From Segetibacter sp. (GTDB taxonomy: Bacteria > Bacteroidota > Bacteroidia > Chitinophagales > Chitinophagaceae), in NCBI GenBank assembly GCA_043733905.1, contig JAYTGA010000299.1, positions 85-64,084 of the forward strand: a DNA stretch of 64,000 nucleotides, written 5' to 3'. Both the position numbers and the translations under genes were made by a program. Shown piece after piece: positions 2,054-7,435 of the stretch (positions are counted from its first letter, which is position 1; each line of letters begins with the position of its first letter). Below the pieces are notes generated by a model. It was not told where the DNA came from. It did not search any database and was given only the letters and a program-made list of their open reading frames with translations.

Positions 2054-3976
2054 ATGAAGAAACTTGCATTGGCTTTCATTGGCATTGCCTCCGTGGCTGC
2101 CTCGTATGCTCAAACTGTTTTTACTTTTGGTAAAAACGCAGTGTCTAAAGATGAGTTCGTGAGGGCTTTTAATAAAAACCCAAACATCAGCGGCGACCGC
2201 AAAAAAGCACTCAGGGAATACCTTGATCTTTACACCAACTTTAAACTAAAAGTGCAGGCCGCCTACGACGAAGGATTGGACAAAGATGCTACCCAACAAT
2301 ACGAGCTGCAAAATTTTAAACGACAGATTGCAGACAACATCATAAACGATCAGGCCAATGTGAAGCAACTGGTGAAAGAAGCATTTGACCGCAGCCAGAA
2401 AGACATTCATGTTGCACAAATCTTTGTGGAAGTCGGCCCTGACGAAGATTCTGCTGCGGCCTTCAAAACAATTAACACTGCCTGGAAAGAGTTGAAAGAA
2501 GGAAAAGATTTTGGCGAAGCCTCTGCATCTTACTCCACTGAAGAAAGTGTGAGGCAGTCAAAAGGTGACCTGGGCAAGATCACTGTTTTCACCCTTCCTT
2601 ACGAAATAGAAAACATAATCTACAGCCTGAAGCCGGGAACTTATTCTGCACCATTTCGTTCCAAAATCGGCTACCATATTTTTAAGAACATTAGCGAAAG
2701 CAAATCGCAGGGTTCGCGCCGTGTGGCGCAAATATTAATTGCTATGCCGCCCAACCCCACAGAAGAGCAAAAAGCTGCAGCTTCAAGAAAGGCAGACAGC
2801 GTTTATCAATTGGTTACCGGCAAAGAAAATTTTTCATCAGTTGTAGCTACGCTTAGCAATGATCTCAGCAGCAGCCCAACTAAAGGTGAACTGCCTGAAT
2901 TTACAATTGGCACCTACAATTCAACCTTTGAAAATGTTGCTTTTTCCCTCAGCAAACCCGGCGACATTTCAAAACCGTTTGCAACCAATCACGGCTACCA
3001 CATCATCAAGCTGCTGGAAGCAAAACCCGCCGCTGCCGACCTCAACGACGGATCGGTATATGCCGGTTTGCAGGATAAAGTATCAAAAGACAGCAGGCTC
3101 GAAAAATCAAAAAATGAGTTGATTGAAAAGCACCTGGCTCTCATTAAATACAAGCCTGCTGCTGTGAAAGAAAGCGAGCTGTTTGTTTATACAGACAGTG
3201 CCGTGCATAACAAGGGTGTCACAGGTTTTAAAACTATCAACGAAAACACAGTGTTATTTTCATTTGCGAAGCAAAATATTAAAGTTGCGGATTGGGTAAA
3301 ATACATCAAAGCCTCGCAGCAGAACAATGAAGAAGGCATCAAAAATTATTCGCCGTTTTACAAAAAATTCATCCGCACCTCAGCCGACGATTATTACCGC
3401 ACCAACCTGGGCGATTACAACGACGACTACACAAGACAAGTGAAGGAGTTTAAAGAAGCTAATCTGCTCTTTGGCATCATGGAAAAAAACGTGTGGGGAA
3501 AGGCTAATACGGATTCATTGGGGTTGCTGGCTTACTACAACCAGCATAAAGAAAAATACATGTGGCCTGCGAGTGCCAATGCCATTATAATAACTTGCAA
3601 CACTGAAAAACTGGCAGAAGAAATAGCGCAAAAAATAAAAGCAAACCCTTCAGACTGGAGGCAGATAACGGCAAACAATGGTTCAGATGTCATTGCCGAC
3701 AGCAGCCGCTACGAACTGTCTCAGTTACCCGTGCAGGAGCATACAGATTTTACAGAAAACCTGGTCACCATCCCGGTAAAAAACAAACAGGACGAATCTT
3801 ATACCTTCAACAATGTGTTGAAGGTGTATAAAGAACCGGGACAAAGAAATTTTGAAGATGCCCGTGGCATGGTCATCAGCGATTATCAGCAAGTTCTGGA
3901 AGCAAAATGGATAGAATCGCTGAGAAAGAAATATCCAGTTAAGGTAAATGAACAAGTGTTTGATACAATTAAATAG
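2054..3976 (+). CDS. Periplasmic parvulin-type peptidyl-prolyl isomerase (SurA/PpiC-like, two rotamase domains)
   Basis: Signal peptide; rotamase motifs SKGDLG...GYHIFK and GELPEF...GYHIIKL. Confidence 0.85.
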   Translation: MKKLALAFIGIASVAASYAQTVFTFGKNAVSKDEFVRAFNKNPNISGDRKKALREYLDLYTNFKLKVQAAYDEGLDKDATQQYELQNFKRQIADNIINDQANVKQLVKEAFDRSQKDIHVAQIFVEVGPDEDSAAAFKTINTAWKELKEGKDFGEASASYSTEESVRQSKGDLGKITVFTLPYEIENIIYSLKPGTYSAPFRSKIGYHIFKNISESKSQGSRRVAQILIAMPPNPTEEQKAAASRKADSVYQLVTGKENFSSVVATLSNDLSSSPTKGELPEFTIGTYNSTFENVAFSLSKPGDISKPFATNHGYHIIKLLEAKPAAADLNDGSVYAGLQDKVSKDSRLEKSKNELIEKHLALIKYKPAAVKESELFVYTDSAVHNKGVTGFKTINENTVLFSFAKQNIKVADWVKYIKASQQNNEEGIKNYSPFYKKFIRTSADDYYRTNLGDYNDDYTRQVKEFKEANLLFGIMEKNVWGKANTDSLGLLAYYNQHKEKYMWPASANAIIITCNTEKLAEEIAQKIKANPSDWRQITANNGSDVIADSSRYELSQLPVQEHTDFTENLVTIPVKNKQDESYTFNNVLKVYKEPGQRNFEDARGMVISDYQQVLEAKWIESLRKKYPVKVNEQVFDTIK

Positions 3977-5230: not shown

Positions 5231-5314
5231 TTTTTTAATACCCAACCTTACGAAACTTATTGCTTTAGAGTCTTTATGGTTTGTTTATTTTTGCCCCCTC
5301 ATCAATTTATAAAA

Positions 5315-5665
5315 ATGCAAACAAGTACAATTACCATTGACATACAATTAGATCACGAAAAAGTGCCTCAACAAATATCGTGGAAAGCCAGTGACAGCAG
5401 TGCAGACATGGCGCAAAAGGCCAAAGCATTTATGCTTGCTTTTTGGGATGGCGCAGACAAGTCGGCAATGCGCATTGACCTCTGGACAAAAGAAATGATG
5501 GTGGACGAAATGGCTGACTTTTTTTATCAGACTTTCATGACAATGGCCGACACTTACAACCGTGCCACAAAGCACACAGAACTAACCAACGACATAAAAG
5601 AGTTTGCAAAGAATTTCTATGAAAAATTTAAGGCTTCGCAAATGGAAACGAATAAGCTGCAGTAG
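5315..5665 (+). CDS. gldC: Gliding motility protein GldC
   Basis: Motifs ITIDIQLD.EKVP..I.W.A and MRIDLWTKEMMVDEM.DFFYQT are characteristic of GldC; start refined to ATG 5315. Confidence 0.9.
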   Translation: MQTSTITIDIQLDHEKVPQQISWKASDSSADMAQKAKAFMLAFWDGADKSAMRIDLWTKEMMVDEMADFFYQTFMTMADTYNRATKHTELTNDIKEFAKNFYEKFKASQMETNKLQ

Positions 5666-5670
5666 GAAAA

Positions 5671-5730
5671 GATGTTAGTATTTAGATGTCAGTATTTAGA
5701 CAAAACAAAGAACTACAAACAAAGAACTTC
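5671..5730. repeat. Two adjacent 14-bp tandem duplications (GATGTYAGTATTTA x2; AAACAAAGAACTWC x2)
   Basis: Read directly at 5671-5698 and 5703-5730, between gldC and yqeY. Confidence 0.8.
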
Positions 5731-5749
5731 ACTAAAACACAAACAAATC

Positions 5750-6202
5750 ATGAATCTGGAACAACGAGTAATGGCAGAAATGAAAGATGCTATGAAAAGC
5801 AAGAACGAAGCTGCTTTGCGTGGACTGCGAGCCATTAAAGCAGCCATCATTATCGCCAAAACTGCTGAAGGCGCAGGTGGCGAACTAAAGGCCGAAGACG
5901 AAACCAAACTGGTGCAAAAACTGGTGAAGCAACGCAAAGACAGCCTGGAGATTTACGAAAAACAAAACCGGGAAGACCTGGCTAAAACTGAGCGGGAAGA
6001 AATCAGCATTTTAGAAAAATTTCTACCAGAACAAATGACCGATGAAGAACTGCGAAGTCAATTAGCGGTACTGATTGCAGAGTTGGGAGCTACATCTCCA
6101 GCCGACATGGGCAAAGTGATGGGAGCAGCTACCAAACATTTTGCCGGAAAGGCAGAAGGCAAAGCCATTTCAGCAGCAGTAAAAGATTTGCTGAACAAAT
6201 AA
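5750..6202 (+). CDS. GatB/YqeY domain protein
   Basis: MKDAMKSK...LRAIKAAI...KQRKDS...E..ILEKFLPEQM...DMGKVMG pattern; start refined to ATG 5750. Confidence 0.9.
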   Translation: MNLEQRVMAEMKDAMKSKNEAALRGLRAIKAAIIIAKTAEGAGGELKAEDETKLVQKLVKQRKDSLEIYEKQNREDLAKTEREEISILEKFLPEQMTDEELRSQLAVLIAELGATSPADMGKVMGAATKHFAGKAEGKAISAAVKDLLNK

Positions 6203-6247
6203 TCATATGGTTTTGCTCAGCAATCCACTTTTGAATTGTAAAACAAA

Positions 6248-6733
6248 ATGAAGAAAATAAAACCATTAAAAATCTTTGATGGAAATTTTGGAGAATTTGT
6301 TCAATATGTTTTCAATGAAAAAAAACCTGACAATACAGTTATCATTATTGGCAACATTAAAGATGTTATCAAAAAAGACCTTGAAAGCAACGGAACGGAA
6401 TTGCGGTCGAATGTAATTGTCATATCTGACAAGAAACTGCTCCGTGCGGTGAGAGATGCAAAAATGAGCAGAGGCAAATCCATAGCCATTGAAAGGCTCC
6501 ATGAAATTGTGGAGGCAATAGAAAATCCGCTGGCAATTTTGAAAGATAAAAGAGGCGGACAACTGGTTTACATTTATGCAAATCAGTATAATGAACTGAT
6601 TGTTAAGATAGTGATGGAGCCCAATACTAATATGGATGGCAACATCATTAATCTGGCAAAATCTATTGGCATTGTCGAGAAAAGAGTGCTGACCGATACA
6701 AACACATACGACGTGATTTTTGGCAAAATATAA
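6248..6733 (+). CDS. Putative phage BECR-fold (Barnase/EndoU/colicin E5-D/RelE-like, PBECR/MuF C-terminal type) ribonuclease
   Basis: 161 aa, visibly AT-rich. The pattern IVISDKKL...K..RG...ENPLAILKDK...LVYIY...KIVMEPN...N...SIGIV...IFGKI recalls C-terminal toxin domains of phage MuF head proteins (by eye). Confidence 0.5.
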   Translation: MKKIKPLKIFDGNFGEFVQYVFNEKKPDNTVIIIGNIKDVIKKDLESNGTELRSNVIVISDKKLLRAVRDAKMSRGKSIAIERLHEIVEAIENPLAILKDKRGGQLVYIYANQYNELIVKIVMEPNTNMDGNIINLAKSIGIVEKRVLTDTNTYDVIFGKI

Positions 6734-6754
6734 AGGCATCCGAAGATGCCTTTA
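6731..6754 (-). terminator. Intrinsic terminator hairpin TAAAGGCATC-CGAA-GATGCCTTTA
   Basis: Perfect 10-bp inverted repeat. On the minus strand the loop is cUUCGg followed by UUUAUAUUUU. Confidence 0.75.
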
Positions 6755-6755
6755 T

Positions 6756-6842
6756 GAGTTGGAGAGCCGCTTACCTTCTCATGACATAGCACTTTATGGG
6801 TGGCATGTAACTGGCCGAAGCGAAATTTCCAGTTGTCAACTC
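6756..6842 (-). ncRNA. Candidate ~87-nt cloverleaf (four-way junction) small RNA
   Basis: Minus strand: closing stem GAGUUG/CAACUC plus arms AACUGG/CCAGUU, ACAUGCCAC/GUGCUAUGU (7-nt loop) and GAGA/UCUC. It lies between a TATCTTTA promoter-like box and the UUCG terminator. Confidence 0.55.
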
Positions 6843-6846
6843 GCTG

Positions 6847-6854
6847 TAAAGATA
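6847..6854 (-). promoter_or_regulatory. Bacteroidota -7-like box TATCTTTA(CAGC) for the candidate sRNA
   Basis: One mismatch to TAnnTTTG, placed 4 nt before the 5' end of the closing stem. Confidence 0.5.
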
Positions 6855-6895
6855 CTGAATTTTATAAACCTCAATAACAACCCATTTCCCCAAAA

Positions 6896-7435
6896 ATGAT
6901 TATTGACCTCATTTGCCTCATTTTGCTGGTGCTGGCTATTTTCAAAGGAATGAGCAGGGGATTTATTGTGGCTGTTTTTTCTTTCGTTGCCTTCTTGGGG
7001 GGCATGGCAGCAGCCTTGAAGCTGTCGGCGACTGTGGCAGAAAGGCTCCATCAAAAAATGAATTTATCGGGCTACTGGTTGCCCATTCTTTCTTTCATGC
7101 TTGTGTTCACAGCGGTTGCTTTTGCCATCAGGTTCGGGGCAAAACTGGTGAAGAAAGTGGCAGGCATCTTTTTTCTCGGCTGGTTAGATTCGCTGCTGGG
7201 TGTGGTCTTATATGCAGCCATGTACCTTATGGTTTATAGTGTTATTTTGTTTTTTGCAACACGCATTTACCTGGTTTCCAACGAGGCCAGGCACTCATCT
7301 AAAACCTACAGTTACATTGCTCCTTTTGGGCCGAAAGTCATAGGAGGCATTGGCAAAGTTGTTCCTTTTTTCAGCCACATATTTTCCGATCTTGGCAGTT
7401 ATTTTGAAACAGTTACAAAAAAGCAACGTACTTGA
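6896..7435 (+). CDS. cvpA: CvpA (colicin V production) family membrane protein
   Basis: MIIDLICLILLVLAIFKGMSRGF...LGWLDSLLG pattern; hydrophobic; follows yqeY. Confidence 0.85.
   Translation: MIIDLICLILLVLAIFKGMSRGFIVAVFSFVAFLGGMAAALKLSATVAERLHQKMNLSGYWLPILSFMLVFTAVAFAIRFGAKLVKKVAGIFFLGWLDSLLGVVLYAAMYLMVYSVILFFATRIYLVSNEARHSSKTYSYIAPFGPKVIGGIGKVVPFFSHIFSDLGSYFETVTKKQRT

Follow-up and report, generated by a model that had tools for sequence, protein, structure and literature searches.

The stretch of Segetibacter sp. DNA analysed here (64,000 nucleotides, hereafter the window) carries a two-gene islet of ~690 bp (6203-6895) between yqeY and cvpA. It consists of an open reading frame (ORF) for a protein of 161 aa, ORF X or simply X (6248-6733, plus strand), and a gene for a tRNA-shaped small RNA (sRNA) that lies directly behind X on the minus strand and converges on it. 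From 5276 to 7435 the order of the protein genes, all on the plus strand, is gldC-like, yqeY, X and cvpA, where yqeY and cvpA are identified by Pfam profiles (PF09424, E 1e-42, and PF02674, E 1e-22, respectively). The original prediction for this site had named the 161-aa gene, an opposite-strand promoter box, an 87-nt RNA and a terminator, and all four were found at the positions it gave. It had also called the gene AT-rich; X does have a lower GC content than its neighbour genes, but only mildly so (35-40% versus 41-47%).

The two genes end in a hairpin terminator (6732-6753, both strands) that overlaps the stop codon of X and is common to the X mRNA and the sRNA. The hairpin reads AAAGGCATC-CGAA-GATGCCTTT and has a 9-bp GC-containing stem; read on the minus strand, it presents a cUUCGg loop followed by UUUAUAUUUU. 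Since an A-tract lies on one side of the hairpin and a T-tract on the other, termination is possible from both directions. The 87-nt RNA segment starts two bases beyond the hairpin. At its other end, a -7 promoter box, TATCTTTA (6847-6854, minus strand), precedes the RNA and is 4 nt away from the start of its closing stem. This box is close to TAnnTTTG, the -7 consensus of Bacteroides and other Bacteroidota promoters. Driven by a strong promoter of its own, the sRNA is predicted to start exactly where its closing stem begins and to end at the terminator common with X; the full transcript probably runs from ~6842 to ~6725 (~118 nt).

Fold and conservation of the small RNA

The minimum-free-energy fold of the 87-nt core (6756-6842, minus strand) is a four-way junction with the shape of a tRNA, and it reproduces the stems, arms and linker that had been predicted as a cloverleaf. 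The two ends of the core form the closing stem (GAGUUG/CAACUC). Arm 1, at the position of the D-arm (6809-6834), pairs AACUGG with CCAGUU and carries a 14-nt loop, AAAUUUCGCUUCGG. Arm 2, at the position of the anticodon arm (6784-6808), is a variable hairpin, 7 nt in the loop, whose C.C mismatch is conserved. In the window, its loop is CCAUAAA and its strands are ACAUGCCAC/GUGCUAUGU (ACAUG-C-CAC/GUG-C-UAUGU), which include a single C.C mismatch and a single G.U pair. Arms 2 and 3 are joined by the 3-nt linker CAU. Arm 3 stands at the position of the T-arm (6762-6780), pairs GAGA with UCUC around an 11-nt loop, AGGUAAGCGGC, and abuts the 3' strand of the closing stem, on which it stacks. Absent from the original prediction is a complementarity of 5 bp between the loops of arms 1 and 3: CGCUU in loop 1 (6818-6822) pairs with AAGCG in loop 3 (6768-6772), both on the minus strand, and this pseudoknot helix occupies the place of the D-loop/T-loop elbow of tRNA. 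ARAGORN calls no tRNA in the window and Rfam has no family for it, either at gathering thresholds or at E values up to 10, in agreement with the earlier view that the RNA is not a real tRNA.

Five distinct sequences of the window-type RNA, in effect three lineages, could be compared. All 26 pairs (21 in the stems and 5 between the loops) are formed in every one of them, and six pairs have changed on both sides, one of these within the pseudoknot. In a control where the pairing partners were slid by 1-3 columns, pairing fell to 29-46% and at most one double-changed pair was left. The structure of the RNA is beyond chance. With a covariance model of it (R1), four related loci score 103-113 bits, and a more distant metagenome locus, L066, to which we return below, scores 73 bits (E 1e-16). 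Although the synonymous divergence (dS) between the window and the related locus L001 is ~0.8-0.9 in both X and cvpA, the two do not differ in the closing stem, arm 1 or the loop cores. Where changes have occurred, they preserve pairing. In L001 and L002, arm 3 has GAAG/CUUC in place of GAGA/UCUC, with two pairs double-changed; in arm 2, the G.U pair at the base of the arm is replaced by U-A. The distal part of arm 2 is replaced altogether in L001 and L002, and ends in a GUGA tetraloop in L066. Compared with the window, three pairs are double-changed in L066: a C-G to U-A change in arm 1 (pair 11/32), which is unchanged within the clade, a U-A to C-G change in arm 2, and a U-A to A-U change in the loop-loop helix (pair 25/77), where CGCUU/AAGCG becomes CGCUA/UAGCG. 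The complementarity of the two loops is kept in 5/5 RNAs.

The original prediction had preferred the minus strand, and the comparison agrees with it. The minus-strand fold (-35.3 kcal/mol) has a z-score of -2.4 compared with -1.9 for the plus strand, and at three positions a G.U pair on the minus strand corresponds to A.C on the plus strand. Every carrier locus has either TAACTTTG or TATCTTTA as its -7 box, with TAACTTTG at the equivalent position in L001, L003, L004 and L066. The terminator of L001 and L002 has a wholly different sequence, in which the A-tract/stem/T-tract form is kept. Taken together, the changes that keep pairing, the strand bias of the G.U pairs, the kept box and the kept form of the terminator indicate that the RNA is a gene of the minus strand, with a promoter and a terminator of its own.

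Among 5.8 billion proteins, X has four close homologs only; all four are found in the gldC-yqeY-X-cvpA context, and the RNA is present in each. The carriers group together by nucleotide identity of cvpA. In the sister loci L021-L025, where CvpA is 78-84% identical, the gap between yqeY and cvpA is 26-29 nt and both X and the RNA are absent, the search with R1 included. That the two are missing together from the sister genomes shows that both genes make up one insertion, as expected of the two-part unit in the original prediction. We infer that the islet was gained once in the carrier lineage, or was lost as a unit elsewhere. X stands in the chromosome without phage genes nearby, and no integrase is close. 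In L020 (1637-3537; CvpA 83% identical), a divergent glycosyltransferase gene precedes cvpA instead of gldC-yqeY, and the locus was therefore rearranged in that lineage.

Comparison of window positions 6580-6810 with L001-L004 shows that the carrier strains are mosaic. Two old alleles, one in the window, L003 and L004 and the other in L001 and L002, comprise the C-terminal ~50 residues (the C-terminal third) of X, the terminator and arms 2 and 3 of the RNA, which change together. The N-terminal part of X and the promoter flank of the RNA do not follow these alleles, which have recombined independently of both. In L004 (1040-1552), X is frameshifted by one additional A within the A-run at nucleotide 21, while the remaining frame and the RNA are intact; this copy is a recent pseudogene unless the added A is an assembly error.

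Protein X and its phage relatives

An exhaustive HMMER search retrieved 138 relatives of X. In many of them, the domain of ~155 aa forms the C-terminus of MuF-type proteins of 400-570 aa, some with Phage_Mu_F or minor-capsid matches in the N-terminal part; it is also found as solo proteins of ~165 aa, labelled Caudoviricetes by their source. The Pfam profile MuF_C (PF18819) matches X with E 2.8e-4 (21.4 bits, under the cut-off of 27.6 bits) and matches 15 of the 40 aligned relatives, the best at 1.2e-7, and PBECR2 and PBECR3 match one relative each. X also matches phrog_220, a minor head protein, in its C-terminal part (E 2e-4). According to Iyer et al. (2017), the MuF-C family belongs to the PBECR (phage BECR RNase) clade, whose members are predicted to be metal-independent RNases (PMC5512222).

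A model of X was made by AlphaFold2 (AF2) from a 40-sequence alignment, which gave a predicted local distance difference test (pLDDT) score of 89.5 and was used in place of a 5-sequence alignment that gave 45. The model has a helix plus a core of four to five strands (helices 61-67, 70-74 and 85-92; strands 96-100, 106-114, 117-129 and 132-144, plus 154-159). A Foldseek search of BFVD with this model returned MuF C-terminal domain, polyvalent and nuclease-named proteins with E values of 1e-11 to 1e-4. Searches among PDB sequences gave nothing, no family was obtained from PADLOC or NCBIfam, and tblastn of X and of protein P0205 against GenBank phages gave no match. Residues K72, D100, Y108, K120, N135 and S139 are kept in X. 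The last of these is the Ser/Thr of strand 4, a column with Ser in 65/108 and Thr in 41/108 sequences, and most relatives keep the full catalytic-type residue set. The ratio of nonsynonymous to synonymous substitution (dN/dS) of X is 0.13-0.33. X is thus under purifying selection and is a functional gene.

These profile and model matches support the membership of X in the MuF_C/PBECR family and its origin from a MuF tail. The closest relatives are C-terminal tails of MuF-type head proteins, as had been proposed. Judged by these relatives, X is a stand-alone copy of the C-terminal domain of a MuF-type head protein that was captured from a phage, and it adds to a known family a new member that is both solo and chromosomal. 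An antisense ORF of 157 aa (6266-6739, minus strand) that spans almost all of X was rejected as a shadow of it; its many F, I, N, C and H residues and its start inside the terminator hairpin make it look like a shadow ORF and not a gene.

Recurrence of the pair outside the host clade

The closest relative of X outside the clade is P0006, a MuF-fused protein 47% identical to X, for which a single metagenome locus (L066) was found. There, a terminator follows the stop codon of P0006, and beyond it the opposite strand carries a clear homolog of the window RNA with its TAACTTTG box. The convergent layout is met again in gut phages (L005, L027-L063), whose solo homologs have ~25% identity to X: the stop codon is followed by a hairpin and then by an opposite-strand four-way junction of 70-82 nt behind a TAnnTTTG box (TACATTTG, TACCTTTG, TATCTTTG or TATATTTG). 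The pairing is also found in L067, where the solo gene and the RNA adjoin type I restriction-modification genes, in L068, L070 and L072, and in L107, where the protein is fused (298 aa). It is probably carried by L112 as well, a locus cut by a contig end. The arrangement with the shared hairpin recurs in L066, L005, L067 and L068.

The acceptor stem of the phage RNAs is 7 bp long, and its positions 1-4 and 7 are paired in 12/12 distinct RNAs, each position showing 2-4 types of pair. The D-arm has the form UCGC...GG...GCGA and the T-arm loop reads UUCRANU. Where a tRNA would have its anticodon arm, these RNAs have a short stem-loop that contains a pyrimidine.C mismatch and is closed by GAAA, UUCG, GUGA or a similar loop. 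An alignment by MAFFT and RNAalifold brought out the D- and T-arm stems only, as it misaligned the 3' strands of the acceptor stem, whose pairs were therefore counted by a script. ARAGORN calls none of these RNAs a tRNA, and Rfam gives only a weak match to tRNA-Sec, in L005 (E 1.4). By their loops and stems, the phage RNAs are unmistakably tRNA-derived. Their homology to the window-type RNA is judged from architecture, position and the shared C.C mismatch, not from sequence. The single pyrimidine.C mismatch of arm 2, mostly C.C, is kept in both RNA classes despite the unrelated sequence around it, and may be a site of recognition or cleavage.

When IMG/VR was searched in reverse, with the pattern of the phage RNA alone, 43 sites were found. 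At 40 of them an ORF of the family is convergent with the RNA, its stop 35-44 nt away; of the other three, one is cut by a contig end, which leaves 42 informative sites, and two, on one contig, have no such ORF. As many of the 40 sites come from closely related phages, we count ~10 independent lineages. The original prediction had named covariation downstream of homologous genes and a constant convergent orientation as the signs to look for, and both are borne out by the 26 pairs of the window-type RNA and by these sites. Patterns of the window-type RNA found nothing in IMG/VR, where loci related to P0006, P0009 or P0041 were also absent. A loop-based pattern run on 596 Gb of GTDB genomes gave 14 matches, about the number expected by chance; the sole match in Bacteroidota lies inside an acyl-CoA dehydrogenase gene and was rejected. 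The X-RNA gene pair, as a comparative result, is well supported, and its two members almost certainly act together.

The fixed spacing of 35-44 nt could also be taken to mean that the sRNA acts on X, or on cvpA, as an antisense RNA or through transcriptional interference, much as in type I systems, the overlapping 3' ends leading to cleavage of a duplex or collision of polymerases. Convergent genes with a shared hairpin and an overlap of ~25-30 nt that includes the stop codon of X, invariant in all lineages, would suit such control. Yet the conserved four-way junction, the covarying pseudoknot and the T-loop/D-loop would not be needed for it, and the RNA core forms duplexes with the X mRNA or the cvpA leader that are no better than those of shuffled RNA. 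Moreover, X is a soluble domain of 161 aa, not a small membrane peptide. We therefore regard antisense control as improbable.

More improbable still, to the point of being hard to credit, is that the RNA is the degenerate remnant of a tRNA or of an attachment site, or is a cis element of the plus strand such as a riboswitch or cvpA leader, and that X lies beside it incidentally. Its connectivity is indeed like that of a tRNA, and it stands just upstream of cvpA. However, its conservation is far above neutral expectation and includes compensatory changes, the G.U pairs and the promoter box indicate the minus strand, and the RNA is absent from sister genomes in which cvpA is intact. The phage RNA, in turn, is internal to the genome beside a homologous gene and not at a prophage end, with no integrase nearby. 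Incidental adjacency and a plus-strand cis element are largely refuted by these observations.

Several loci show variations on the arrangement. In L068 (3012-3170, minus strand), one TAACTTTG box is followed by two tRNA-like units in tandem, with different acceptor stems (GUGAAAU/AUUUCAC and CCAAAAU/AUUUUGG), which suggests a precursor that would need processing. The two sites without an ORF of the MuF_C family nearby (L083:588-640 and L089:10981-11039, both from IMGVR_UViG_646564560_000001) have an acceptor stem extended to ~12 bp and no terminator hairpin after it, and are flanked by repeated non-coding sequence common to both; the RNA in L089 is ~430 nt from an ORF of 510 aa of unknown function. 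In phages, genes for ParB-like and LPD3-domain proteins accompany the solo gene (L005:4766-5521, L068:66-938, L112:697-1038), and these genes lie just upstream of terS, terL and the portal gene. As ParB-like and LPD3 domains are fused with PBECR in polyvalent proteins, the repertoire appears to be split here into separate genes. Near the MuF gene of L066, an ORF of 96 aa (2766-3056, minus strand) matches the Acb2/Tad1 hairpin domain of anti-CBASS and anti-Thoeris sponge proteins with 25.6 bits, below the cut-off of 27, and is adjoined by an MT-A70 methylase gene.

Possible function and comparison with known systems

What we say of function is drawn from comparative genomics. We tentatively favour the reading that X and the sRNA are a toxin/antitoxin or abortive-infection pair captured from a phage, with the RNA as an antitoxin that mimics the substrate. 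The RNA would bind X as a mimic of the tRNA body, and its anticodon arm, capped or altered into a hairpin, would leave it uncleavable, so that it occupies the enzyme and keeps X inactive. It would then be an RNA antitoxin or immunity factor, by a logic like that of type III systems. If synthesis or stability of the RNA dropped, through host shut-off on phage infection or through loss of the locus, X would be set free and could attack tRNA or other RNA of the cell. The RNA of the phages would likewise protect the producing cell or lysogen from a MuF-borne or solo effector. BECR-fold toxins commonly cut tRNA (PMC5512222), and a tRNA body with a capped anticodon arm is what would be expected of an uncleavable competitive ligand. 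A self-contained pair also fits the islet under purifying selection without phage genes, the restriction-modification neighbours in L067 and the duplication in L068, where a tandem RNA would raise the dosage of an antitoxin. The two alleles in which the end of X, the terminator and arms 2 and 3 change together would agree with it as well.

Several observations weigh against this reading. The layout, with a convergent RNA gene that has its own promoter and usually one copy, is unlike that of all known type III systems. The alleles in which X and the RNA change together could be explained by simple linkage, and two phage-type RNA copies (L083, L089) have no protein gene. X has R66 and D70, whereas 96/108 relatives have His at either position (at 66 in 57/108, at 70 in 39/108); R66 is shared by 11/108, and Arg instead of His has been reported for one PBECR family (PMC5512222). 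Without the usual His, RNase activity of X is uncertain, and X may be catalytically dead. The BECR-type family of the original prediction is supported by profile matches across the relatives, but its fold is not confirmed by a solved structure: the Foldseek search of PDB gave no significant match (best E 0.12), the best BECR-related entry being a contact-dependent inhibition (CDI) toxin complex at E 0.83. In the literature, endoribonuclease activity of MuF_C/PBECR domains is a prediction only (PMC5512222).

Some of these points would suit a different arrangement, in which X and the RNA form a ribonucleoprotein (RNP) without any toxin-antitoxin relation. The RNA would be the working part and X its dedicated binder, chaperone or processing enzyme; X might, for example, trim the 3' trailer, separate tandem units, or load a tRNA-like decoy, delivered or expressed by phages, against host defences that target tRNA. 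Consistent with this suggestion, X lacks the usual His, and RNA binding has been predicted for the inactive MuF-C of phage Mu (PMC5512222). The tandem units in L068, the protein-less RNA copies on one contig, and the position of the phage pair beside ParB-like, LPD3 (of the polyvalent counter-defence repertoire) and packaging genes would also agree with an RNP. Against it, most family members have the full catalytic-type residue set, and a chromosomal islet of X and the RNA only, under purifying selection in a non-phage setting, is easier to understand as a self-maintaining or defensive pair. We consider an RNP unlikely, though it is the foremost rival reading and deserves more weight than antisense control.

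Returning to the toxin-antitoxin reading, it is possible, and we put this with slightly more reserve than the reading itself, that the islet belongs to a widespread undescribed class of modules in Bacteroidota phages, defence islands and chromosomal islets, in which a MuF-C/PBECR effector is combined with a tRNA-like RNA lacking the anticodon loop as its immunity factor. MuF-C is the tail of the classic F protein of phage Mu, its target and regulation are so far predicted, and as many as 26% of the polyvalent proteins of phages are reported to contain MuF-C/PBECR domains (PMC5512222). Full-text searches found no MuF-C/PBECR domain paired with a tRNA-like RNA; their coverage is incomplete, and this is absence of evidence only. 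A dedicated tRNA-shaped partner makes it a testable hypothesis that these domains recognise the shape of tRNA, with the RNA as cognate ligand or inhibitor. Should the RNA neutralise X, the pair would represent a new architecture of RNA-based toxin control and an RNA immunity to a phage-delivered effector, built on a natural tRNA scaffold whose elbow is remade from Watson-Crick pairs between loops. It would then be the first RNA immunity factor or antitoxin for a BECR-fold nuclease, acting by mimicry of the tRNA substrate and organised unlike any known toxin-antitoxin type. The comparison also adds a family of gut-phage RNAs missed by Rfam and by tRNA finders.

X resembles the PBECR/MuF-C domains (PMC5512222; PF18819) in its profile match, in the helix-plus-four-strand core of its model and in the Ser/Thr of strand 4, and the domain is both solo and MuF-fused in phages of the same kind. 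It differs in having Arg and Asp for His and a chromosomal place without phage genes, and no RNA partner is described for those domains. The MuF polymorphic toxins of temperate phages described by Jamet et al. (2017) likewise combine a MuF N-terminal module with a variable C-terminal effector and encode the protective factor immediately downstream (PMC5576092). There, the factor is an immunity protein, whereas here it would be an RNA gene on the opposite strand.

As RNAs, the sRNA and its phage relatives share an acceptor-like stem, a stacked T-arm and an elbow contact with tRNA-like non-coding RNAs such as YrlA/Y-RNA with Rsr, viral tRNA-like structures and phage tRNAs. Unlike these, they have no anticodon loop or encoded CCA, and their partner is unrelated to Ro/Rsr. 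They also depart from tRNA itself: the window RNA fails tRNA finders and has Watson-Crick loop-loop pairing in place of the tRNA elbow, and the phage relatives have T-loop/D-loop motifs but a capped anticodon arm. The pRNA of phi29-type phages was considered and rejected, with no Rfam match at E up to 10; it is a three-way junction with intermolecular loop-loop pairing, and has no more in common with the RNAs here than complementary loops and, in phages, proximity to packaging genes.

Colicin D and colicin E5 are BECR-fold tRNases with immunity proteins. In work of Graille et al. from 2004, the colicin D immunity protein was reportedly found to mimic the tRNA substrate. By analogy, X and the sRNA might share the logic of a BECR-fold, tRNA-recognising enzyme blocked by a substrate mimic; the colicin mimic is a protein, and cleavage of tRNA by X is only putative. 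Type I systems are further removed, since X is soluble and has 161 aa, the overlap is confined to the shared terminator, and there is no excess complementarity. The proposed logic is closest in kind to that of type III systems (ToxIN, CptIN, TenpIN), where a structured RNA binds and neutralises an endoribonuclease, and a link to phages and abortive infection, as well as tandem RNA units in one relative (L068), would be shared. In type III systems, the RNA consists of tandem short pseudoknot repeats that lie upstream of the toxin in one operon, are separated from it by a terminator and are cut by the toxin, which has the ToxN/AbiQ fold. The X module, by comparison, has a single tRNA-shaped RNA that lies downstream, converges on the protein gene and has a promoter of its own, and its protein belongs to the PBECR/MuF_C family.

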